From contig JASLKH010000002.1 in the NCBI GenBank assembly GCA_030747675.1, forward strand, positions 1 to 26,553: a stretch of DNA of 26,553 nt. The letters are read 5' to 3'. Made by a program: the position numbers and the translations under genes. The notes under the pieces were generated by a model. The model had not been told where the DNA came from, ran no database searches, and worked only from the letters and a program-made list of their open reading frames with translations. Shown piece after piece: positions 1 to 21,758 of the stretch (positions are counted from its first letter, which is position 1; every line of letters starts with the position of its first letter). This DNA is from Candidatus Thalassarchaeaceae archaeon. GTDB taxonomy: Archaea > Thermoplasmatota > Poseidoniia > Poseidoniales > Thalassarchaeaceae.

Positions 1-1084
1 TGGGACATTTCAAATCTTGGCTCTTCCCTTTCGATTTGAATCGAGCACCACAAGAGCAAACAGGTCTACGCAGATTGCGGATACCATTTACCAGTTTTAA
101 TTTCTCAAGGTGAATTGTTCCATCTGGTGATTCCAGGCCAATCCATTCAATGGAGTCTCCTTCTTTCATCGATTGAGCCAATTTATTTATTGGCCCCCCC
201 TCCGAAAATGAGGCTAATTTCCTATCAGTAAATAGGATGACATGACCTCCTTCAAGGATTTTAGGATTTGTGCTTAGGATTGCTGATTCAATAGATTCAA
301 TGTGGTCATCACTGGCTTGATTGGTGCGATGCAAACGCCCACTTTTCGCTAATTCAGCGCCATTTTCTTGAAGATATTTATGCGCCGATTCGACTGATTT
401 CGAAGATTCACCACGAACCCCATATAATACTGGACAAGGTGTCCTTGGTGCAATTAGCGATTTTCCAGCATTTGGATCTCGATTCATGAATGTCAGAGGG
501 TATCTCTTGGACATATTTTTGACTAACTTTTCGGGAACATTGCGGATGCTGTTCGTGTCAGTGCGCCATGCTATGTATTCCCAAGTGAAGTCGTTTCCCC
601 CCCTCCAAGCCGCTGCTGCACTTGCCCCAATAATTCCATTCATCCCTCTCGGACTAAACCATGAATCAAAGCGATATTCTTCTAATTCGAGTACCCTATT
701 TTCAAGAGTTACTTCAGAACGGACTGTATCCCAGTATAATTTTTCAGCGGGTCGCTCATGAAAAGCAACCAAAACAGGTTGAGCAGAATGTTTCGAATCA
801 TCTGGTTCCAACATAGAAAAACGATTATTGAACCAAATAGTGATACTATCTGAAATCCTTGGCCAAGATGATTCTGTGCAAGTAATCTTTGCAGCTAAAG
901 CCGCATTGCCTCTAGTACGACGTGCTGCAAATGGCCACAGCCTTACTAACCTCACATCAGTAATTTCGCAGTTAGATTCAATTGATTCCAAGAGATTGTT
1001 GAAATCAAATGTCGTACAACCAAATTCCCGCTCGTCTGTATCATCTAAAGCAAGCCAGATTTCCTGGCACGAGGATTTAGTCAT
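1..1084 (-). CDS. tiaS: tRNA(Ile2) agmatinylcytidine synthase TiaS (3' end runs off the window)
   Basis: Not in the ORF track because the frame has no stop before the edge. Manual translation from ATG at 1084 gives MTKSSCQEIWLALDDTDEREFGCTT...RLVRLWPFAARRTRGNAAL...GIIGASAAAAW...DFTWEYIAWR...IAPRTPCPVLYGVRG...RTNQASDDH...CSCGARFKSKGKSQDLKCP. This matches the TiaS DDTD, TRGNAA, APxTPxPVLYGxRG, TNQxxDDH and C-terminal Zn-ribbon motifs. The ATG overlaps the gmhB stop (ATGA). Confidence 0.95.
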   Translation of the reverse strand, partial: MTKSSCQEIWLALDDTDEREFGCTTFDFNNLLESIESNCEITDVRLVRLWPFAARRTRGNAALAAKITCTESSWPRISDSITIWFNNRFSMLEPDDSKHSAQPVLVAFHERPAEKLYWDTVRSEVTLENRVLELEEYRFDSWFSPRGMNGIIGASAAAAWRGGNDFTWEYIAWRTDTNSIRNVPEKLVKNMSKRYPLTFMNRDPNAGKSLIAPRTPCPVLYGVRGESSKSVESAHKYLQENGAELAKSGRLHRTNQASDDHIESIESAILSTNPKILEGGHVILFTDRKLASFSEGGPINKLAQSMKEGDSIEWIGLESPDGTIHLEKLKLVNGIRNLRRPVCSCGARFKSKGKSQDLKCP

Positions 1085-6300: not shown

Positions 6301-8694
6301 GTCCAAATCAGTATGGAATATCTCATTTTGGGCCTCCTTTATCAACAACGAGTTTGCCTGTTGGCGATGGTCACGAAAGACTTTTTCTGATTTCTGCTGG
6401 AATTGTTTGGGACTGACTTCATCTGCACCAATCCTTCGAGGGATAATCAGAGAACGACCTGCTACTTCACGGAACCTTTTAGCGAATAACTGGCTATCTA
6501 ACAAATATCGCTGGAGGACTTCATCTCTCTGATTCTTTTTGAATAATGGATAAATTAGTGCAGTATCAATTTCTTGGCCTGTTTTGAACAGAAATGCATT
6601 CTCATCAAATGACATTTCGATAACATGGAAATCATGCATTTCACAAAGACCTGCCATGAAATATCCAAGAGCCATGTTGAAGGCTCTACCGCGACATGTA
6701 GTGATTATGTAAGTTGGAACTGGGCTATTCGTAATTTGTTCAAACAAAATGCGATCGTGATTTGGAACTTGGAAGGAGTCGATTGTGTGTTCTTCAAGGA
6801 ATCGAGCAAGAGATTCGCTAATGGGATCTGAAAGGCCATACGCACCACCAAGAATCAGGCGTGGATCGTGCCCACGACGAATTGCTGTAACTGTGGAATT
6901 TAGTAAATCGAGGACGGCTCCAGAAAGTTCGCGGGAACGGCTCATCGCCTCCCCTGACCAAGAGGGGACTGTTGGACGATATCCAGTGACAGGAGTTACA
7001 CTAACTCGACTAGATTGAATTTGATGCACGCGATATGTTGTCCCACCTAGCAAAAAGACGTCGCCTGATCTCAGATTTTGAACGAATGAAGAAGATAGTT
7101 GGCCAATCATTGTCCCATCTGCTGAAAATACCAGATAATTATTGTCAGGAGCAATTGTACCGATATTAGTATAGTAAATCATCTGAGAATATCCACGTTT
7201 CCCAATTTTGTTATCTTCCCAATCAACCCAAACACGACGCTCCTCCTCAAGTAAATCTAGAACATCAATAAAATCATCATAAGGAAAATCTTTGTATGGA
7301 TATGAAGAAGTGATTATTCCATATGCTTCATCCATATCCATTTCGCCGCATATTGTCAAACCGATGATAAATTGAGCAACAACATCCAAGCAATTTCTAG
7401 GGAAGCGAAGGTTATCCATTTCCCCTCTCATTATAGCACCCTGTAGCGCCACTAATTCGAGTAAATCGTGTACTGATGTTGGAAGAAAACGTGCGCGTGG
7501 AATACCGCCTACATGATGTCCTGCACGACCAATGCGTTGCAGAGCAGTTGAAATTGAACCTGGTGAGCCGATTTGGATAACCATGTCAACGCTGCCAATA
7601 TCAATTCCCATTTCCAGAGAACTGGATGATACACAGCATCGTAATTCACCACGTTTCAGTTTACGTTCAACTTCAAGACGAATTTGTTTGTCCATAGAAC
7701 CATGATGACCTTCAACACCCGCAAGGCCGAGAACTCGCAACTTTTGAGTGATTATTTCCGTCATTTGACGCGTATTTGCGAAGACCAAGGTTGTTGTATG
7801 AGCTTCACACAAATCCTTGATAATTTCAACATTATGGTCTAGTAATTGCTTGACTGGGACTTCGTTGAATTTTGGATGTGGCAAAATGATGTCCATATCC
7901 AATTCGCGCGTCCCACTCACTTTGGCGATGTGGACTTCAGATGATTCCTCATCATCGAAACGAGGGATTGGAGCACCTGTTTCATCATCACGATCTATAC
8001 CTTTTACAGGGACCAAAAAGTGTGCTACTTCCTCAAGAGGTTCCATCGTCGCTGATATCCCTAATCGTTGAACTGGATTGGCAATTAAAGTATCCAAAAG
8101 AGCCATTGTTAGTGATAAGTGGGTACCTCTTTTCGTTGGTACCAATGAATGCAATTCATCAATAATAATCCATTTCAAATCATGCATGAGGGGTCGGAAT
8201 TTTTTCGAAGCAAGAGCGAGACCTAATGACTCTGGTGTGGTGATAAGAATGTGCGGCGGTTTCCGCAACATCTTTTGCCGTTCCGATTGAGGTGTATCTC
8301 CAGTCCGTAGCCCGACTCGTATTTCCTGTGCACGACTTGGCAAAAAACGTTCACTAATTTCTGTAAGTGGGCCAATTAAGTTCTTTTGAATATCATTAGC
8401 TAATGCCTTGATTGGTGAAATATAGATGCAGTAAACCTTCTTTTCGAGTTTTCCATCAACTGCTAGGCGAATTAATTTGTCAATAATTGTAAGAAATGCA
8501 GTCAATGTCTTTCCCGAACCTGTCGGGGAGCACAAGAGTAAATGATCACCATTCATGATAGAGGGGATTGCCAACTTCTGAGGTTCCGTGAAATCTGGAA
8601 ATTTTTGCTTGAACCATTCCCTGACGGGTTGTGAAAGTTCAGATAAAATCTGCTCTGTTTCACACGGATTATCCAAGTATACTGTTTGAGCCAT
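3355..8694 (-). CDS. lhr: Large Lhr-family SF2 ATP-dependent helicase (~1779 aa) with an extended winged-helix C-terminal region
   Basis: Motifs FTEPQ (Q), SPTGSGKT (I), YISPIKALANDI (Ia), LITTPESL, IIDELH (II), ISAT (III), HHGSM, SSLEMGIDIG (V) and QRIGRAGH (VI), plus the Lhr signature IPSWSGE-like VPSWSGE. Start placed at ATG 8694 (MAQTVY); the extra 38 codons upstream look non-coding. Confidence 0.92.
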   Translation of the reverse strand: MAQTVYLDNPCETEQILSELSQPVREWFKQKFPDFTEPQKLAIPSIMNGDHLLLCSPTGSGKTLTAFLTIIDKLIRLAVDGKLEKKVYCIYISPIKALANDIQKNLIGPLTEISERFLPSRAQEIRVGLRTGDTPQSERQKMLRKPPHILITTPESLGLALASKKFRPLMHDLKWIIIDELHSLVPTKRGTHLSLTMALLDTLIANPVQRLGISATMEPLEEVAHFLVPVKGIDRDDETGAPIPRFDDEESSEVHIAKVSGTRELDMDIILPHPKFNEVPVKQLLDHNVEIIKDLCEAHTTTLVFANTRQMTEIITQKLRVLGLAGVEGHHGSMDKQIRLEVERKLKRGELRCCVSSSSLEMGIDIGSVDMVIQIGSPGSISTALQRIGRAGHHVGGIPRARFLPTSVHDLLELVALQGAIMRGEMDNLRFPRNCLDVVAQFIIGLTICGEMDMDEAYGIITSSYPYKDFPYDDFIDVLDLLEEERRVWVDWEDNKIGKRGYSQMIYYTNIGTIAPDNNYLVFSADGTMIGQLSSSFVQNLRSGDVFLLGGTTYRVHQIQSSRVSVTPVTGYRPTVPSWSGEAMSRSRELSGAVLDLLNSTVTAIRRGHDPRLILGGAYGLSDPISESLARFLEEHTIDSFQVPNHDRILFEQITNSPVPTYIITTCRGRAFNMALGYFMAGLCEMHDFHVIEMSFDENAFLFKTGQEIDTALIYPLFKKNQRDEVLQRYLLDSQLFAKRFREVAGRSLIIPRRIGADEVSPKQFQQKSEKVFRDHRQQANSLLIKEAQNEIFHTDLDMEELEKFVNGMDGDGVRIVHSRVSFPSALGMNLYMAAFEDLLSMRTRAYLVKDIDPEILRRLLGGRSKATDLDDDALEKYYSDKFGIPKDADGLLRLMESGGGLENTLANPLYGSKLAEIPEVQIHKWIEELAQSGDITKITGTGSDGVDNKWFSIRMAEIHGTLGVLAAKGAGDMESVRELYTGGLHYKSGVSFSGIEVTEWIDSKLADPYECLRVKVTDMLRSEGPSTLEKISERLPFPTAQIETLLHEMEVRNIVSIGFYTQTNEGEFILRVDEHIITGGDTNIIEYRALQNLLLNKSYKQYPDAISALTDGHIMFTKMHELLGRIENFRFADWKDMKHDSDIVMGRLLHSRVGYTTKEMIPTLLGLRPEPWFAEMDTHLVDYITPGENVERSEILGHLPKGDEHKHIQRDARNAMSNMERQMVFVKQFEELPDRKRSLSLFHRVHDVYAPLPFEDALLELIRRVGPIKLHALRLFISHPVELLAEILRDLESSGKVQKVTALQPDPTDFYCVPEDALALRRHNREDRTLRIMTQSDPFCSRFIQEVRYVLKQGWYYPVFKGVDPVGRILMFKVNDYLEIKDIHIPHSYLDEFAIIFDELLDNYSDTLVDVSVLHNFNGVPIHECDENIQGIVEKLGFKSMGDNERYIRGGIVDPRPRSLAMRALFFHHNLHQHSRTENETIALSKVAEIRDDFALRGRCEMYRVDLKSMAASQQMHQGTNLRNHQVWAPYKHFQRLLRIRNHEPDEDLVDVLEFFNSNSDPQIFMDRYAMKRAEFRKLAQPLIRSGHLVQDYRGGFKTVRRLDSADTWEVKREYLREMVAEYPIITLKQCEKLAGSPFKAEEISVVLHEFEAEGHLIKGFLVDDLHEVCWGRKELLEEADSIEPMRDFVLPPSDPLLPYFQSLLRERFGFGSAYMVFWNEEPIAAFKANTRNSIIEVTDFVGDSEKEQEALRVMKEFAWEHNMPLKGKVLDRLKPQR

Positions 8695-8877
8695 GTTCTT
8701 TCCTACTTTGAATCTGGCTTGGAGGGTATCAATGCAATATATGAACAATTGCATCAGAACATCATCGGATGAACAAATTGTTGCACATTTCCGTGTGTCC
8801 ATCTCCAATAATAAAGATAGTCTGAATATTTTTAGAATTTATCAAGTACTCGTGTTGAAACGCAAGTTCGTGTCATA

Positions 8878-10008
8878 TTAGTCTATACGAAATGTGCATG
8901 ATTTTGGCTCTTTGAAGATTTTACGCCGGTACTTCGCAATTATTCTGTATCCAATATCTCGAACTGGTAAAGGGATTACCCAAAGGAATGGATACCACAT
9001 TTTGTAATACCATTTCATGTATAGTAATCCACGAATCCCTGCTGCTGAGCGGATGTATGGTTTACCGTTTCGGATGAGATAAACTGTGTCGGCACCCTTC
9101 ATATTTTCAGGAAGTGTAGCAATGACTCGTTGTGCATCCTCCGCCAGAATAGGGCGGTACCCGAGTCGTTGATTATTTCCCAATCGCTTGTCGATGAATG
9201 TTGCCAAACGATGACAAAGCCCGCAATCACCATCCAAAAATAAGTAATCTCGTTGTTCCCCTGGTCTGATTCTTTCAGCCACTTCCATTGGCCATGTATG
9301 GACATAAACTCCTGTTGAAACATGCACCATATCCGGTTTTAGCACATCCTTGATTCCAAGGTCATATGACTCAGTAAGAGAATTATCCTCAACTGTGACT
9401 TTTCCTTCTTGAAATACCCAAGGATCATGTTGAGTATGGGTGATTTGTAAAGTTCCATTTTTCACAGTGTATAACGAATATCGCTCAAATAAAAATTCCT
9501 CTAATGAGTCCTTTTTAGCCCGCATATTCTCACCTTTAGCACAGGCTTCACCGCACAGAGAAAGTCCGTTACTTACTCGCTTGGATTCCCAAGAATATAT
9601 CTCATCTTTAGCCGAGAATTTACATTTCGAATATCGATAAGGGAGGCCATAAGCCCGAGGAGCATATGCACACGTGATTCGGCTGTATGCGTCAAGTGTG
9701 AGAAATAAGACCCCGCCTTTTCCATCCTTGGTCACATAAGTTCGAATATTGAATTCGGGAAAATTGGAAATTCCAGGAAGCCACGGAAGGAAGCGTGGTC
9801 TTACTTTTTTCATCTCGAAGGGGATTACACCAACGTAGGCTTTGCCCTCATAGATGTCCAATTCTAGCCCTTCTGGAATGTAGGGGGCCAGGTGAATGGG
9901 ATCAATTTTCCAATGCATGAAGGTTAGATTACGCCATTCCTGGCTAAATGCATGTGAATTAGGGGGCATTTGGAACGGCAAGTGATCGGCTCGGATTTTG
10001 ATGCCCAT
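8878..10008 (-). CDS. Fusion protein: N-terminal DUF2071 (YqjF-like) domain plus C-terminal DCC1-like (DUF393) thiol-disulfide oxidoreductase domain
   Basis: N-terminal part has QEWRNLTFMHW, YVGVIPF, FPEFNIRTYV, GVLFLTLDA and FLFERY.LY (YqjF/DUF2071 pattern). C-terminal part has LFLDGDCGLC, S.A.IR and P.PVRD.GYR.IAKYR..IF (DCC pattern). Start at ATG 10008 has an upstream GGAG and avoids overlap with the preceding gene. Confidence 0.8.
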   Translation of the reverse strand: MGIKIRADHLPFQMPPNSHAFSQEWRNLTFMHWKIDPIHLAPYIPEGLELDIYEGKAYVGVIPFEMKKVRPRFLPWLPGISNFPEFNIRTYVTKDGKGGVLFLTLDAYSRITCAYAPRAYGLPYRYSKCKFSAKDEIYSWESKRVSNGLSLCGEACAKGENMRAKKDSLEEFLFERYSLYTVKNGTLQITHTQHDPWVFQEGKVTVEDNSLTESYDLGIKDVLKPDMVHVSTGVYVHTWPMEVAERIRPGEQRDYLFLDGDCGLCHRLATFIDKRLGNNQRLGYRPILAEDAQRVIATLPENMKGADTVYLIRNGKPYIRSAAGIRGLLYMKWYYKMWYPFLWVIPLPVRDIGYRIIAKYRRKIFKEPKSCTFRID

Positions 10009-10028
10009 AATCGCTCGCACTCCTGACT

Positions 10029-11360
10029 TCATTGCCAATGAGAAGTGATATGGTCGGACCATGTTTCATATGATGGTTCTTTTGAACGACTTCCTTGTCT
10101 GTAGAAGCCAAACATTTTCTTCTTGTCTAGCCCTTTTGCACCCTGTTTGTGCGGTTGATATGCAAGGACGTATTTCGGGGCTTTCTGTACGTCAATTCGA
10201 ATGATTTTATTGTCGCGGAATGGCACGAATCTTATTGTCCAACATCCAGTAAGTGATTGTCCACTGCACACTAAATTTTTCTCTAGTATTTGTGAAATAT
10301 GCAGTTCTAATTGATCAACGGTGGAAACTTTAGTTGAATGACTCAAATCAGCTTCTAAGGTATTCGCGGGCAAAAATGGTTCCTCATCTTTTATTCCAAT
10401 GAGCAATGTCCCTCCAAGGGTATTGAGAAATGCCGCAACTTCTTTGACAACAACATCTTGTAACTCTTTATTTTGCTCCCCTTGGTTTTCACCCTCTGTG
10501 TTAGTCCAAAAGGAAGCTTTCAGTTCTAGTCGTTCATTTTCTCCTCCTGAAACTAATTGGTCGAGGGGGATTTCGTTTTCTTTGAGAGTTTTACTAATCG
10601 CATTACTTAATTTTTCAAAAAAACGCTCAATATTATCTACTTTGACAGATTTTTTCCCACGCCTTAAATCAAGAATATATCCAATCGCAACAAGTGGTGA
10701 GCATATGATCACCAATGCTAAAAGGAACATTATGATTGAATTAAAAAGAGCGAAAGAAGCAAAGAGAGTTTCTTGAATCGTATCTTCATGAATGAATAAT
10801 GAATAAGCAGCAGCAGCCCTTTGAAGGGCAAGGACAAACACCCAGAATTCCGCAAACCCTCCTCTGACTTCGCGAAATATGAAGGGAGATGATCTCTGTT
10901 CATGCCTTAATTCAATGAATTTTTCAGTGTCTTTATTTTTCGTTAGATACTCATACAATAATTCAGGCCATGCAACTACCAACATCCAGAAAATCAATCC
11001 AGCAGGCAAAGCCCATAACCTGGGTAATAATGACAAGAAAAACTCACTAATTTCCCAAGAATTTGAATGAAAAATCACAAGTAATCCGAGGAGGAAAAGG
11101 ATGTTTGCACAACGAAAAGGCGTGCTAATCAGTAGCGATATTCGCGGTGAAACAACATCGGCTTCTTTCAACTCATACCCCGCTATTTGATTTGGATAGT
11201 GATAGAGAAAAGAGTATGGTGATTCGTCATAGTCGTATTCTTGTCTATCCGAAGATTGACGGATTTTTCCAATCGTACCATTGGAAAAAAGGGCATACTT
11301 TTCACCCTTTAGCACGGATATTGGTAAATTCAAGTCAGGGTCTGGGTCACAACTGACCAT
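10029..11360 (-). CDS. Membrane protein (~4 TM) with a C-terminal Schlafen/AlbA_2 domain
   Basis: Hydrophobic segments at about aa 74-97, 107-131, 170-190 and 199-230. These are followed by GENERLELKASF...VVKEVAAFLNTLGGTLLIGIKD...IIRIDV, the AlbA_2/Schlafen signature. Confidence 0.85.
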   Translation of the reverse strand: MVSCDPDPDLNLPISVLKGEKYALFSNGTIGKIRQSSDRQEYDYDESPYSFLYHYPNQIAGYELKEADVVSPRISLLISTPFRCANILFLLGLLVIFHSNSWEISEFFLSLLPRLWALPAGLIFWMLVVAWPELLYEYLTKNKDTEKFIELRHEQRSSPFIFREVRGGFAEFWVFVLALQRAAAAYSLFIHEDTIQETLFASFALFNSIIMFLLALVIICSPLVAIGYILDLRRGKKSVKVDNIERFFEKLSNAISKTLKENEIPLDQLVSGGENERLELKASFWTNTEGENQGEQNKELQDVVVKEVAAFLNTLGGTLLIGIKDEEPFLPANTLEADLSHSTKVSTVDQLELHISQILEKNLVCSGQSLTGCWTIRFVPFRDNKIIRIDVQKAPKYVLAYQPHKQGAKGLDKKKMFGFYRQGSRSKEPSYETWSDHITSHWQ

Positions 11361-11529
11361 TATTGACCCGCTAACTTAGATGTAGATAAACTACCTCCAA
11401 ACTCAATTAGTGTTGCATATTATCGCAGCGATTGAAGCGGGGGCCCTTGCAAAAAATTTGCAACAGAATGATGGTTATGGGCATTCTTATCCGATTCCTT
11501 GATGGTACTCCTGTGCACCCGCCCATTCA

Positions 11530-14839: not shown

Positions 14840-16408
14840 TCAGCCTTTACGTTCTTTCCGCCAAGTTCGTGGGTGGAAGAGCACGAGTACTGTGAGTAAT
14901 TCTAGCCGCCCCGCCCACATCAATAATGAAGTATAGATTAACGAGTACCAATTCAAACTTGCCCAAGTAGAAGTAGGACCAAACGCACCCAATGCTGGCC
15001 CTGTATTTCCAAGGGCCGAGAATATTACTGAAAGAATTGTTTCGAGAGAATGTGTTGGTTCAAAAATTGCTAATAAAGCCGTACTTATCATTGCCAAAGC
15101 AGCCCATGTGGACAACATTCCAATGACAACCCACATTCTTGAATCATCAACCACCTCATCATTAATCCGAACACTAACAACTGCACGAGGTTGTACCATT
15201 CTGTGTATCTCTCTTCGTGCCAGACCAAATGCAAGTCGAAGTCGAAGGATCTTCAACCCACCACTAGTAGATCCAGCTGAGGCGCCAACTGCCATTAAGA
15301 AGAGAAGTATGAATAAAGAAAGTACTGGCCAACTCGCAAAGTCAGAACTAGCATACCCTGTCGAGGTACCAATTGCAGCAGCCTGGAACGCACCATGTCT
15401 CAGAGCTTCACCCCATTCCCAGCCTGCACTACTAACGAGATTAATAGCAAATAAAGCCCAAGCACATAGAAGCACGAGAAGATATACTCTTAGCTCTTGA
15501 TCATTGATTACCTTGGCATACTCCTTAAGCAGAAGGAAATGGAACAATGTGAAGTTAATACCTGTTGCTACCATAAAAAAAGTGATGATGATTTCAACTC
15601 TCGGACTATCGAAATCCATCACACCACCGTCTGTTGTCCCAAAGCCACCGGATGACATTGTTGTTAACGAATAATTAATTGCATTAAACCACTTCAAATC
15701 TGCAACCCACAGCAACAAAATGAACTCAAGTATGGTGAATACGACATATATGCCCCAAAGTGCTTGAGCAGTTTCTTGAAGCCTAGGACGGAGGCGACTT
15801 AGAGATGGTCCAGTAAGTTCTGCTCTAGCAATAGACATTCCCCCGCCAAGTGCGCGACTTAGTAATAACATGCCAAGCATAATGATACCCATGCCACCCA
15901 ACCATTGTGTCAATGATCTCCAAAACAATATCCCATATGGTTGGCTACCAATACACTCGTCAGCACCTTCACATCGCGGAGAAACATGCGGGTCAATAGT
16001 GGTAGCACCACTTGTAGTGAATCCAGACATCGATTCAAACCAACCCCGAATAAATCCTCCAAGAATTTCCTTGAGTGTGCCGCCATCGCCATCCCAAGTA
16101 ATGGGGCCATGGAATGTTGGACCCAGCCAATACGGCAGTGCCCCTACCGCAACAATCAACGGCCACGATAATGCAACTGCTGCAAATGCTTCACGATCCC
16201 TAAGGCGATCTGCTGAATCTCTCCTTGTTCCATACCTAATGAGAATACCACCCACTACAACACAAAACAAAATTGGGGGTAAGAATGACCAGAGGATAAT
16301 GGCTATTTCATCATGCGTGATGAACCCTATACCAGCACTAATAGCAAGTGGTATTGCGAGAAGGAAGAGGCTCCATCCCGCAATTAATCCAATTACGTCG
16401 TATCGCAT
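14840..16408 (-). CDS. trkH: Trk potassium uptake permease TrkH
   Basis: Motifs FESMSGFTTSGAT, WRSLTQWLGGMG, TTMSSGGFG, GASAGSTSGGLK, SALGNTGP and GRLELLTV. Confidence 0.96.
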   Translation of the reverse strand: MRYDVIGLIAGWSLFLLAIPLAISAGIGFITHDEIAIILWSFLPPILFCVVVGGILIRYGTRRDSADRLRDREAFAAVALSWPLIVAVGALPYWLGPTFHGPITWDGDGGTLKEILGGFIRGWFESMSGFTTSGATTIDPHVSPRCEGADECIGSQPYGILFWRSLTQWLGGMGIIMLGMLLLSRALGGGMSIARAELTGPSLSRLRPRLQETAQALWGIYVVFTILEFILLLWVADLKWFNAINYSLTTMSSGGFGTTDGGVMDFDSPRVEIIITFFMVATGINFTLFHFLLLKEYAKVINDQELRVYLLVLLCAWALFAINLVSSAGWEWGEALRHGAFQAAAIGTSTGYASSDFASWPVLSLFILLFLMAVGASAGSTSGGLKILRLRLAFGLARREIHRMVQPRAVVSVRINDEVVDDSRMWVVIGMLSTWAALAMISTALLAIFEPTHSLETILSVIFSALGNTGPALGAFGPTSTWASLNWYSLIYTSLLMWAGRLELLTVLVLFHPRTWRKERKG

Positions 16409-16410
16409 TA

Positions 16411-17838
16411 TCAGCGCTCCAAAATTCGCTCGATAGTCGGTACATCATCTGATGCAACAAACAGAATCAATCGATCACCAGATTTGACGGTCATGTCATT
16501 ATTAGGCCGCAGCAACAATCTTGATCCATCATTATTTTCACGTTCAACAAAAGCTATTCTAAAGGCATCAGCCTTACGTTCAATTTTCCCAACTGTTTCC
16601 CCAATTACACTATGGTCATCTGAAATTAAGGCACTCATCGCCACAATTTCAGGTACAGAAGGCATTAATTGATAATGGCCAGGAACTCGACCATGTACAT
16701 GCATCAAAATTGAATCAATAGCAACTCGTCTCTCTGATACTGCATAAGTAAGTCCAATTCTCCTTACCACTCTGGCAAGGTTTGAATCATCCAGAATCAT
16801 TCCAGTTCGCTCAACCCCAATGTCTGCAGCCCTCATTGCAATTGCGATGTTATCATGATCATCAGGCAATGCGGCAATTGCGATGTCATGATCTGCTATT
16901 TCAACTTCCTTTAGCAAATCTAAATCGCCTAAATTACAATGAATTACATCCAACCTTTTCTGCGAGCCAATCGAACTACCTACTAACTCATTAGCAGCTT
17001 CAAGTTTCTCATCGAGTACCGTAACCCAGCAGCCTTCGTTAAGATATGACTCTGCTAACTGTCGGCCCAACGATGTCGCACCAAAAATTGCTACACGGGG
17101 TGTTTCAGGGTAAGGAGGTTCAATATGACCAGCCGCTTTGGAAACGCGTTTGAAGGTATGTTCACCTATGGTCGCAAAAACCAATCGATCACCGGCCTCA
17201 ATAATCGTGTCCGATGCTGGTACAAATGCGCGTTCACCTTTACGGCACAGGGTAAATGGTGTCGGCAAACCATCGATATTTTCATCCGCTTGTGCAATGG
17301 TGAAATTTACCATTTGGGATGCATTGGGTGAAACTTCTACTTCTACAATCCATGCATCTCCACCCAAAGGAAGTACCTCATTAAGACTAGATGATTTCAA
17401 TCCGGCTCGTAATCTCGCAATTGAATCCTCGTGCGGGCATATCGCAACATCAACACCTGCCCATCGCGATAGACGATCTTCTTCATCAGCAATCAAACCA
17501 GCATCATGGATTCTAGCCATGGTCAATAGTTCTGGACGCTTTGGGTTTTTTTCAAGTGGCAATTCTTCTTCCAACAAATCTCTTGCTAAAGCGCAAGATA
17601 GAATGTTTCTTTCATCACTACCAGTAGCAGCAATGAAGACACCTGCGTCAGTTATTCCGGCTTCCTTTAACACCTCACGACGTGTTACATCGCCAAGTAA
17701 AACAAAGGCATCAATAGCTTGGGCTTCCTTTATCACATCAGGATCTGGATCTATCAAAACAAGGTCTTGGCCTTCGTCCTGAAGTGCCCGAGCAACACCT
17801 CTTCCAACTTCTCCAGCGCCACCGATGATAATACGCAT
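16411..17838 (-). CDS. trkA: Trk potassium uptake regulatory subunit TrkA (two RCK_N/RCK_C repeats)
   Basis: MRIIIGGAGEVG, AAT.SDE.NI and a second RCK half; 475 aa; lies directly upstream of trkH with a 2-nt gap. Confidence 0.93.
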   Translation of the reverse strand: MRIIIGGAGEVGRGVARALQDEGQDLVLIDPDPDVIKEAQAIDAFVLLGDVTRREVLKEAGITDAGVFIAATGSDERNILSCALARDLLEEELPLEKNPKRPELLTMARIHDAGLIADEEDRLSRWAGVDVAICPHEDSIARLRAGLKSSSLNEVLPLGGDAWIVEVEVSPNASQMVNFTIAQADENIDGLPTPFTLCRKGERAFVPASDTIIEAGDRLVFATIGEHTFKRVSKAAGHIEPPYPETPRVAIFGATSLGRQLAESYLNEGCWVTVLDEKLEAANELVGSSIGSQKRLDVIHCNLGDLDLLKEVEIADHDIAIAALPDDHDNIAIAMRAADIGVERTGMILDDSNLARVVRRIGLTYAVSERRVAIDSILMHVHGRVPGHYQLMPSVPEIVAMSALISDDHSVIGETVGKIERKADAFRIAFVERENNDGSRLLLRPNNDMTVKSGDRLILFVASDDVPTIERILER

Positions 17839-20399: not shown

Positions 20400-21758
20400 A
20401 TGGCGCTTGAGGGGTTGAAGAAAGGTATTTTCAGCGCAGTTGCCAGATTGAAGGGCAAACGTAAACTCGATGAAGCTGAAATGAAGGAATTGACAAAAAG
20501 TATCCGTCGATCCTTGCTAGAGGCCGACTTTAACGTGAGACAAACCAAAGAAATTACTGCGAGATTGGAAGAACGAATTCTCGAAGAAGAACCTCAACCT
20601 GGAATCACATTGCAAACGCATGCAATGAACATCATCTATACCGAACTAGTTCGTTTACTAGGCGCTCCTCGTGAGATTAGACCCCATAATCAAACAATAT
20701 TGATGGTTGGTCTTTACGGACAAGGCAAAACCACAACCACAGCAAAACTTGCAGAATGGTGGCGTAAGAGACATGGTATACGAGTCGCAGTAATCGAAGC
20801 TGACGTTCAACGTCCTGGAGCCTACGCTCAATTGAAACAACTTCTGTCAGATTCACCTGTGGAAGTGTATGGAGACCCAGAAAACCCTGACGCTGTAAGC
20901 ATTGTCAAAAGTGGACTTGCGAAAGTTGGTAACGCCGATGTTGTAATTATCGATACAGCTGGACGTGATCGCCTAGATGATGAATTGCAAGCGGAATTGG
21001 AAAGAATTCACAAAGTTGCTAATGCCACTGAAAGATTCCTCGTAATTGATGCACAGGTTGGGCAGGCTGCTGGTCCTGTGGCAGCGGGTTTCCATGATTT
21101 GGTTGGAGTTACTGGTGTGATTGTATCAAAATTAGATGGTACTGCACGGGGTGGTGGTGCACTTTCGGCAGTGGCAACTACTGGTGCCCCAATTGTATTC
21201 ATTGGAGAAGGAGAAAAAGTTGCAGATCTGGAAAAATTCGAATCAGATCGATTCATATCAAGATTACTTGGAATGGGGGACATTCGTGGATTAATTGATC
21301 TTGCACCTGATTCACTTGATCAAGAAGAAGCAATGCGACTTACTGAACGAATGATGTCTGGAAGATTCACATTGAACGACATGTACAAGCAAATGGAAAT
21401 GATGTCAAAAATAGGGACTATTGACAAAATTGTGTCGCACCTCCCTGACTCTATGTTTGGTGGCCTTGGCAGCATGAATCGACGGCAGAAGGAAGAAATG
21501 CAGCAAAATCTCGAGCGGTTCCGTGTCATAATGGATTCAATGACTCAAGACGAAAAGAATGAGCCACAGATTCTGAAATCAGAGAGGATTCGTCGTATCG
21601 CGAGAGGAGCGGGCGTCCGTGAAAAGAATGTTCGCGAGTTGTTAACCCAGTGGAACCGTTCGCGGAAGATGATGAAGGGGATCAAAGGTAATCGGAAATT
21701 ACGTCGACAAATGAAAGGCATGATGGGCGACGTGGATGACATGGACATGCCGATGTGA
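20400..21758 (+). CDS. srp54: Signal recognition particle protein SRP54
   Basis: Motifs [34 protein letters not shown] and GEGEK, with a Met-rich M domain (IMDSMT..E..EP.IL..ERI.RIARGAG). Confidence 0.98.

Follow-up and report, generated by a model that had tools for sequence, protein, structure and literature searches.

A rare membrane-anchored Schlafen-fold protein from a marine Group II archaeon, a candidate effector of antiviral defence

We analysed a 26,553-nucleotide stretch of DNA, referred to here as the window, from Candidatus Thalassarchaeaceae archaeon (assembly GCA_030747675.1, contig JASLKH010000002.1, positions 1 to 26,553), a marine Group II (Poseidoniales) archaeon. One gene on its minus strand (P0001; 10029..11360) encodes a protein of 443 residues that is very probably anchored in the membrane, faces the cytoplasm and carries a Schlafen-fold domain with an intact catalytic motif, and the gene belongs to the accessory part of the genome. 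By analogy with prokaryotic Schlafens (pSlfns) studied elsewhere, we propose that the product could be a single-chain, membrane-anchored tRNase in antiviral defence, a reading to which we assign a probability of about one half and in which the activity and the trigger are what we infer.

Fold, active site and membrane topology

The gene is an open reading frame (ORF) whose start at 11360 fits an N-terminal motif common to 20 members of the family described below. Residues 274-428 of the product match SLFN_AlbA_2 (PF04326) in Pfam over profile positions 1-116 of 118, at 45.1 bits (E 1.7e-11; curated cut-off 25.3). An AlphaFold2 (AF2) model, calculated from a 36-row alignment, has a mean predicted local distance difference test (pLDDT) score of 90.3 and a predicted template modelling (pTM) score of 0.74. 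The C-terminal domain (residues 263-443; 10032..10574, minus strand, as are all parts of the protein given below) was delimited by PF04326, by structural comparison with Foldseek and VIA and by a profile match to SLFN14, and has pLDDT values of 92-98 over most of its length. VIA matches it to DIP2311 (3lmm, Z 12.9), SAMD9 (Z 12.0), SLFN11 (Z 10.6 and 9.8), SLFN5 (Z 10.2), SLFN12 (Z 9.4) and a RecG-related AlbA_2 domain (2kyy, Z 9.2), and Foldseek returned the same set of Schlafen folds at E values of 6e-5 to 4e-3 and a probability of 1.00; SLFN14 and SLFN13 are also among the Foldseek and VIA matches. The original prediction, made from the letters of the DNA, had proposed a Schlafen/AlbA_2 nuclease here and named structure prediction as a check, and the domain does model as a Schlafen fold.

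The predicted active site is intact. The stretch ENERLELK (residues 274-281, 10518..10541) contains the motif E274-x4-E279-x-K281, and IGIKD (residues 321-325, 10386..10400), part of GGtLLIGxxD, ends in the putative peripheral active-site acid D325 (10386..10388); the coordinates that had been predicted for both stretches are exact. E274, E279 and K281 do not vary among the 20 family members, while position 325 is aspartate in 18 and glutamate in 2, and position 276 is variable. The E-x4-(E/D)-x-K motif has been defined for Schlafens in three studies (PMC13056530, PMC12215978, PMC13462974). In SLFN14 the ExxxxExK catalytic core consists of E206, E211 and K213 (PMC12215978), and in CbCash the equivalent catalytic residues are E17, D22 and K24 (PMC13462974); mutation of these core residues abolishes RNA cleavage in both proteins (PMC12215978; PMC13462974). 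We equate E274, E279 and K281 with these residues by motif and not by residue-level alignment. The family profile matches the SLFN14 sequence with E 1.2e-7 and aligns D325 on D249, and D248/D249 of SLFN14 is the peripheral acidic residue that follows GG-x-LL-x-G (PMC12215978). The match of the same profile to CbCash is weak (E 0.39). Together, model and motif define a predicted nuclease with a Schlafen/AlbA_2 fold and an invariant ExxxxExK metal-and-phosphate site. The invariance of the catalytic E-E-K points to selection on catalytic activity and not only on binding.

Four transmembrane (TM) segments are seen both in Kyte-Doolittle hydropathy (residues ~77-99, 107-132, 170-190 and 199-229) and in the AF2 model (helices 72-99, 103-139, 168-187 and 195-233), in agreement with the original estimate of about four. 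They form two hairpins, of residues 73-134 (TM1 and TM2; 10959..11144) and residues 170-229 (TM3 and TM4; 10674..10853). Averaged over the 20 members, the TM1-TM2 loop (loop A) has 7 residues and 0.2 lysines plus arginines (K+R), and the TM3-TM4 loop (loop C), which is acidic in our protein, has 10 residues and a K+R of 0.5; we place both outside. The TM2-TM3 loop (loop B; 35.3 residues, K+R 6.2) and the segment after TM4 (35.5 residues, K+R 6.3) are assigned to the cytoplasm. On the basis of hydropathy, the model helices and the positive-inside rule, we predict an integral membrane protein with four TM helices in an N-in/C-in arrangement; its N-terminus, loop B and nuclease domain would all face the cytoplasm.

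This topology separates two parts of an earlier suggestion, namely that the TM and N-terminal part senses membrane perturbation or virion entry and switches on a cytoplasmic RNase. The cytoplasmic location of the nuclease domain is supported by the positive-inside rule across the family, which does not place the domain outside the cell. Sensing of virions from the outside finds no such support: with outside loops of 7 and 10 residues the protein exposes almost no external surface, and direct recognition of a virion from that side is therefore unlikely. Any sensing must, on this predicted topology, concern the state of the membrane or a cytoplasmic ligand.

In the model, the cytoplasmic segments that precede the nuclease domain assemble as one fold, built from the strands within residues 2-65, the TM2-TM3 loop strands within 148-163, strand 237-239 and helix 244-262. 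Residues 1-72 (11145..11360) contribute strands 2-4, 15-17, 22-24, 30-33, 49-51 and 59-65 (pLDDT 78-96), and the K/R-rich loop of residues 135-169 (10854..10958) contributes strands 148-153 and 160-163. Residues 230-262 (10575..10673) contain an RRGKK stop-transfer sequence, the last strand and helix 244-262, which in the model serves as the C-terminal helix of the fold and as the linker to the nuclease. When this N-module was compared with 48,161 PDB representatives, almost only members of the PH-like superfold were retrieved (TFIIH p62 PH, Vps36/EAP45 GLUE, FERM F3, PTB, EVH1). Such folds make up about 40 of the 50 best VIA rows, with 76-105 residues aligned over model residues 3-265 and Z scores of 6.6-8.3, a range that may reflect a common arrangement. 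We regard a split PH-like domain on the cytoplasmic side, its loops interrupted by two TM hairpins, as a well-modelled lead. The separate soluble N-terminal region of ~70 residues that had originally been described does not persist in the model, where it forms one half of this fold and is completed by the TM2-TM3 loop and the helix after TM4.

Conservation in the 20 members follows the cytoplasmic segments, which contain all conserved positions of the N-module (P13, L17, L24, F25, Y49, P159 and F247). Residues 1-72, with the first five of these, are its best conserved stretch, and F247 is invariant. The TM helices are the least conserved region, with a mean top-residue frequency of 0.24-0.34 and no column reaching 0.8.

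The family is small. A word-based search of 5.8 billion clusters retrieved only six full-length relatives, and a search of the same kind with the C-terminal domain alone added little (5 matches). An N-module profile built from the N-terminal 262 residues of four members, run with HMMER against 1.84 billion representative proteins, retrieved 29 proteins, in which each full-length match has 427-477 residues; because no match is longer than 477 residues, none has room for a different output domain. In the 20 full-length members scanned, PF04326 is present above its cut-off and no other Pfam domain was found. For the N-module, no Pfam family, including Pfam PH and bPH, recurs across these 20 members at E values up to 10, and a search of the ESM Atlas with residues 1-265 gave no usable match. 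The labelled sources of the family are Tara and other marine metagenomes, and two metagenome-assembled genomes, one of a 'Euryarchaeota archaeon' and one of a 'Candidatus Poseidoniaceae archaeon'.

Genomic setting and distribution

The Schlafen gene is a rare accessory gene, inserted here together with a DUF2071-DCC1 gene into the spacer between Lhr and glyS; it is not a syntenic core gene. The insert of ~2.67 kb (8813..11481, no strand assigned) is absent from the same locus in relatives, and homology to the Lhr-glyS spacer of one of them (G013) stops at ~8812 and resumes at ~11482. A search of 30 relatives recovered glyS in 29. At about 28 of these loci, Lhr is the immediate upstream neighbour, in divergent orientation, and no Schlafen or DUF2071-DCC1 gene was detected in the spacer. 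This comparison answers the presence/absence check that had been suggested with the original prediction. The insert consists of the Schlafen gene, its upstream region of ~120 bp (11361..11481, minus strand) and the DUF2071-DCC1 gene (8878..10032), and the Schlafen gene is accordingly not, as had been supposed, the only gene in the block that does not look like housekeeping. At the insert borders we found no target-site duplication, terminal inverted repeats, transposase genes or recombinase genes.

Seawater metagenome contigs from different studies bridge both insert junctions and the junction between the two genes, and none skips the insert. Two of the runs compared have identical contigs and are maybe one data set, and the third represents a distinct strain with 29 differences. 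Contigs drop rare variants, so the lack of insert-skipping contigs does not show fixation in the population.

The low GC content noted in the original prediction is real (0.390 for the gene against 0.435 for the window) but uninformative, because the gene's GC content at third codon positions (GC3; 0.338) falls within the range of its neighbours (0.33-0.39). The low value must therefore come from the first two codon positions and reflect the amino acids of which a membrane protein is made, and we rejected GC content as a mark of foreign origin. A scan for sigma-70 promoters and terminators stayed at chance level, and such a scan is in any case ill-suited to an archaeon. In the upstream region, a TTTATC element (11390..11385), centred ~28 nt before the ATG, is a possible archaeal TATA box, which would imply a leaderless mRNA. 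One contig of 251 nt from a metatranscriptome library covers 10806-11056; since this coverage is scant and may reflect DNA carry-over, we make no claim about expression.

Copies elsewhere are scarce and scattered. In 40 relatives, a whole-protein search found only a 30-residue tail at a contig edge (G010) and, in a much larger frame, an AlbA_2 domain that matched weakly (G032). The N-module profile found one further carrier (G181), with a copy cut by the contig end, among 400 other species genomes of the order, and no credible match among another 400 genomes of the phylum. The source genome contains no other PF04326 gene. A 71% orthologue (L034) sits in an arginase/AdoMetDC/M14 locus, the counterpart of which in the source genome lacks the gene, and of the further family copies one adjoins a rhodanese gene and another a peptidase gene. 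The gene is thus accessory, with a location that varies between genomes, and mobile.

The locus running from arginase to the M14 carboxypeptidase is rearranged between the two Poseidoniaceae genomes compared, that of L034 and the source genome (contig C35:13487-18980), with AdoMetDC inverted in L034. DHS, CutA, a 154-residue ORF and the Schlafen gene are present in the L034 locus, and all four are missing from the source-genome counterpart. We considered a conserved small partner downstream of the Schlafen gene and rejected it; the ORFs that follow the gene in L034 and in a second metagenome contig (L042, see below) are unrelated. No family copy was found on phages, plasmids or viral contigs in the phage and plasmid collections searched. 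A viral contig (L066, IMGVR_UViG_3300027985_001840) carries a distant AlbA_2 domain that is 27% identical over residues 246-443.

The co-inserted downstream gene (8878..10032, minus strand) encodes DUF2071 (COG2071) fused to a DCC1-like thiol-disulfide oxidoreductase (Pfam scores of 201 and 53 bits). Its start overlaps the end of the Schlafen gene in an ATGA (10029..10032, minus strand), which holds the TGA stop of the one and the ATG of the other; this ATG is M11 of the ORF as listed, and relatives align from residue 12-24 of that ORF. From this arrangement we predict that DUF2071-DCC1 is translationally coupled to the Schlafen gene. We rejected it as an obligate partner, as other family members do not have it for a neighbour and many relatives without the Schlafen gene carry it, either as a fusion or in split form. 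Its own distribution is patchy: the fused form occurs in a few relatives at 61-74% identity, several sister-family genomes have two adjacent genes, and most genomes of the same genus show only a weak match to the DCC1 part. In the DUF2071 part, positions 9509-9691 differ by ~25 clustered substitutions from an independent seawater metagenome (run X4), with nearly identical flanks, and this cluster may be a recombination patch between strains.

On the other side of the insert border, the Lhr ORF as listed starts at a TTG (8808), and all relatives align only from about residue 39. Translation thus probably begins at the ATG at 8694, which would leave ~120 bp of conserved Lhr-side spacer before the insert. 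The flanking core genes include those for TiaS (tRNA-Ile2 agmatidine synthetase; 2-1084, minus strand), the TrkH/TrkA potassium-uptake pair (14840-17838, minus strand) and SRP54 (20400-21758), all of them housekeeping genes.

A possible role in antiviral defence

Whatever goes beyond fold, motif, topology and distribution, we infer. According to the published accounts of 2025-26, fusions of prokaryotic Schlafens to various sensors confer phage protection via tRNA cleavage (PMC13056530, PMC13462974, PMC13552941). The suggestion that our gene encodes a defence effector is plausible from this literature (PMC13056530, PMC13462974) and from the surroundings of one homologue, while most contexts of the family are of the housekeeping kind. 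On that marine metagenome contig (CESI01307547; L042:1578-6536), two small ORFs and the genes for a PbeC/DndD-like ATPase and PbeA (E 5e-96) come after the family member, and the neighbourhood looks like an archaeal Pbe-type (phosphorothioate-based) defence cluster. Beyond the family, the closest AlbA_2 domains occur either as a fusion to a type IIG restriction-modification enzyme or beside GmrSD type IV restriction genes.

Several of these more distant loci show a recurrent pairing of Schlafen and GmrSD. In Deinococcus sp. Arct2-2 (L035:4353-10366), a type IIG restriction-modification enzyme of 1385 residues carries AlbA_2 at its C-terminus, and a GmrSD_N gene comes next. On two marine metagenome contigs (L047:452-3917 and L048:553-2789), small AlbA_2 proteins of 276 and 301 residues are encoded directly upstream of GmrSD (DUF262/DUF1524) genes. 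The former contig also has an Mrr_N ORF, and a further protein (P0008) is a fusion of GmrSD-like and AlbA_2 parts.

We hypothesize that the protein would act as an antiviral effector of abortive infection or growth arrest. At rest, single Schlafen domains would be kept apart or occluded at the membrane. The trigger might be a viral protein, or a viral or cellular ligand, that binds the conserved face of the cytoplasmic PH-like sandwich; alternatively, a change in membrane state at virus entry or egress could act via the TM hairpins that are wired into the PH-like domain. Either event would let the Schlafen domains pair or oligomerise, in the manner of SLFN11 dimers and Cash filaments, and the paired domains would then cut tRNA or rRNA in a Mg- or Mn-dependent reaction, upon which translation would stop. 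We propose that the membrane module controls the pairing, because Cash is active only once its filament aligns the catalytic interfaces, and because prokaryotic Schlafens are one-lobed. A homodimer prediction with two copies scored 0.12 against a mark of 0.42; it gives no verdict and was not used as evidence.

A bolder version of this proposal is that the split PH-like domain and its hairpins constitute a new type of membrane-state sensor, responding to bilayer tension, thickness or potential and gating tRNase immunity, and that the protein is the first candidate for an innate-immune effector specific to marine Group II (Poseidoniales) archaea. Entry or budding of a virus would move the hairpins, deform the beta-sandwich and release or pair the Schlafen domains. 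As the TM hairpins are inserted in loops of the PH-like fold, their movement could pass directly to the cytoplasmic sandwich. We put this forward as a speculation that is unlikely to hold.

Several observations weigh against a role in defence, or against parts of the proposal. Defence neighbours were seen in one of five contexts, a small sample; the other four, including the window, have housekeeping flanks. A sizeable part (30%) of pSlfn genes is not near defence genes, going by the figures given in PMC13056530. The 443-residue protein is recognised by neither PADLOC nor NCBIfam, and its GC3 shows no sign of recent foreign origin. Finally, the PH-like assignment comes from one AF2 model and from Z scores of 6.6-8.3 that VIA flags as possibly a common arrangement.

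Some of these points would also fit a protein without an immune function. A membrane Schlafen could be an RNase for stress or signalling, or a nucleic-acid binder, that tunes translation or RNA turnover to the state of the membrane or to redox, maybe together with DUF2071-DCC1, to which the gene is joined by the ATGA stop/start overlap. Such a role would agree with flanks free of defence genes in the window and in all but one of the four other contexts, with the empty PADLOC result, and with the proportion of pSlfn genes outside defence neighbourhoods (30%, as stated in PMC13056530). A physiological regulator, however, is not expected in only ~2 of 760 phylum genomes, nor at a different locus in each carrier; DUF2071-DCC1 lies beside no other family member and is widespread without the Schlafen gene, and one homologue adjoins PbeA/PbeC. 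We hold a non-immune function to be unlikely. The same sporadic distribution, with a different insertion site per genome, and the potential toxicity of a nuclease domain would also suit a selfish cassette of the toxin or addiction type, the loss or activation of which is harmful without a dedicated antiviral role. Several negative results speak against such a cassette: there is no conserved small partner or antitoxin (the ORFs downstream in L034 and L042 being unrelated), no transposase, terminal repeat or target duplication at the insert borders, and no copy was found on phages, plasmids or viral contigs. This origin appears quite improbable to us.

Within immunity, the roles of the two modules could also be reversed, with AlbA_2 sensing foreign or damaged nucleic acid and the four-TM module oligomerising to permeabilise the membrane, as the TM effectors of CBASS, Thoeris and type III CRISPR systems do. 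TM effectors fused to soluble sensors are common in prokaryotic immunity (for example Cam1, cited in PMC13462974), and AlbA_2 domains bind DNA and RNA (7ksp is SAMD9 with DNA). The pattern of conservation runs the other way, being lowest in the TM helices (0.24-0.34, no column reaching 0.8), whereas the catalytic E-E-K is invariant. We consider such a reversal quite improbable and prefer the reading of the protein as a membrane-anchored Schlafen tRNase in antiviral defence.

Relation to known systems and significance

The closest known parallels are the pSlfn1-55 proteins (for example RorSlfn5 and EcoSlfn7; PMC13056530), with which, as they are described there, our protein shares a single AlbA_2/Schlafen domain with Ex4(E/D)xK on one chain with a non-catalytic module, a sporadic accessory distribution, and at least one member in a defence neighbourhood. 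Unlike in these proteins, the fused module is here a four-TM anchor threaded, in the model, through a PH-like domain, and the host is a marine planktonic archaeon. The main texts of two Schlafen surveys make no mention of membrane forms, and that of PMC13056530 uses neither 'membrane' nor 'transmembrane'. The same account gives 17% of pSlfns as having unannotated fusions (PMC13056530), and therefore some TM forms may be among them.

Cash (Csx15-Schlafen, a CRISPR type III effector; PMC13462974, PDB 9ylu) likewise has a single-lobe Schlafen domain with an E-(D/E)-K centre, and the logic proposed here would be the same, in that the fused module controls oligomerisation and thereby aligns the catalytic interfaces. 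Cash differs in being soluble, triggered by cA4 and linked to CRISPR, whereas our protein lacks a Rossmann-like sensor and has neither CRISPR nor cyclase genes next to it. The N-terminal domains of mammalian SLFN11, SLFN13 and SLFN14 and the tRNase domain of SAMD9 share the fold (Z 9.4-12.0), the ExxxxExK motif and the GG-x-LL-x-GV-x-D motif with its peripheral aspartate. Mammalian SLFNs are soluble, and have two lobes that form a pseudo-dimer as well as linker and helicase domains; the archaeal protein has one lobe and is a predicted integral membrane protein. In its N-module, the modelled beta-sandwich capped by a C-terminal helix, next to the membrane, resembles the PH-like superfold (TFIIH p62 PH, Vps36 GLUE, FERM F3, PTB) and membrane-associated bacterial PH domains. 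It differs from the PH and bPH families in that there is no sequence similarity at the Pfam level, the fold is interrupted twice by TM hairpins, and the Z scores are borderline.

Prokaryotic Schlafens as a kind are already known. What appears to be new, judged from the sequence, is a membrane module fused to the Schlafen domain that has no sequence relatives and almost no extracellular surface. An antiviral role of bacterial Schlafen tRNases was shown only in 2026, and in these systems the fused module sets the switch. If the protein described here is an immune protein, it would point to a sensing route, through the membrane state or through a cytoplasmic ligand read at the membrane, that is not described in the main texts of the Schlafen surveys. 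It offers a concrete candidate for antiviral defence in marine Group II archaea, an abundant and uncultured plankton whose virus-host biology is almost unknown.

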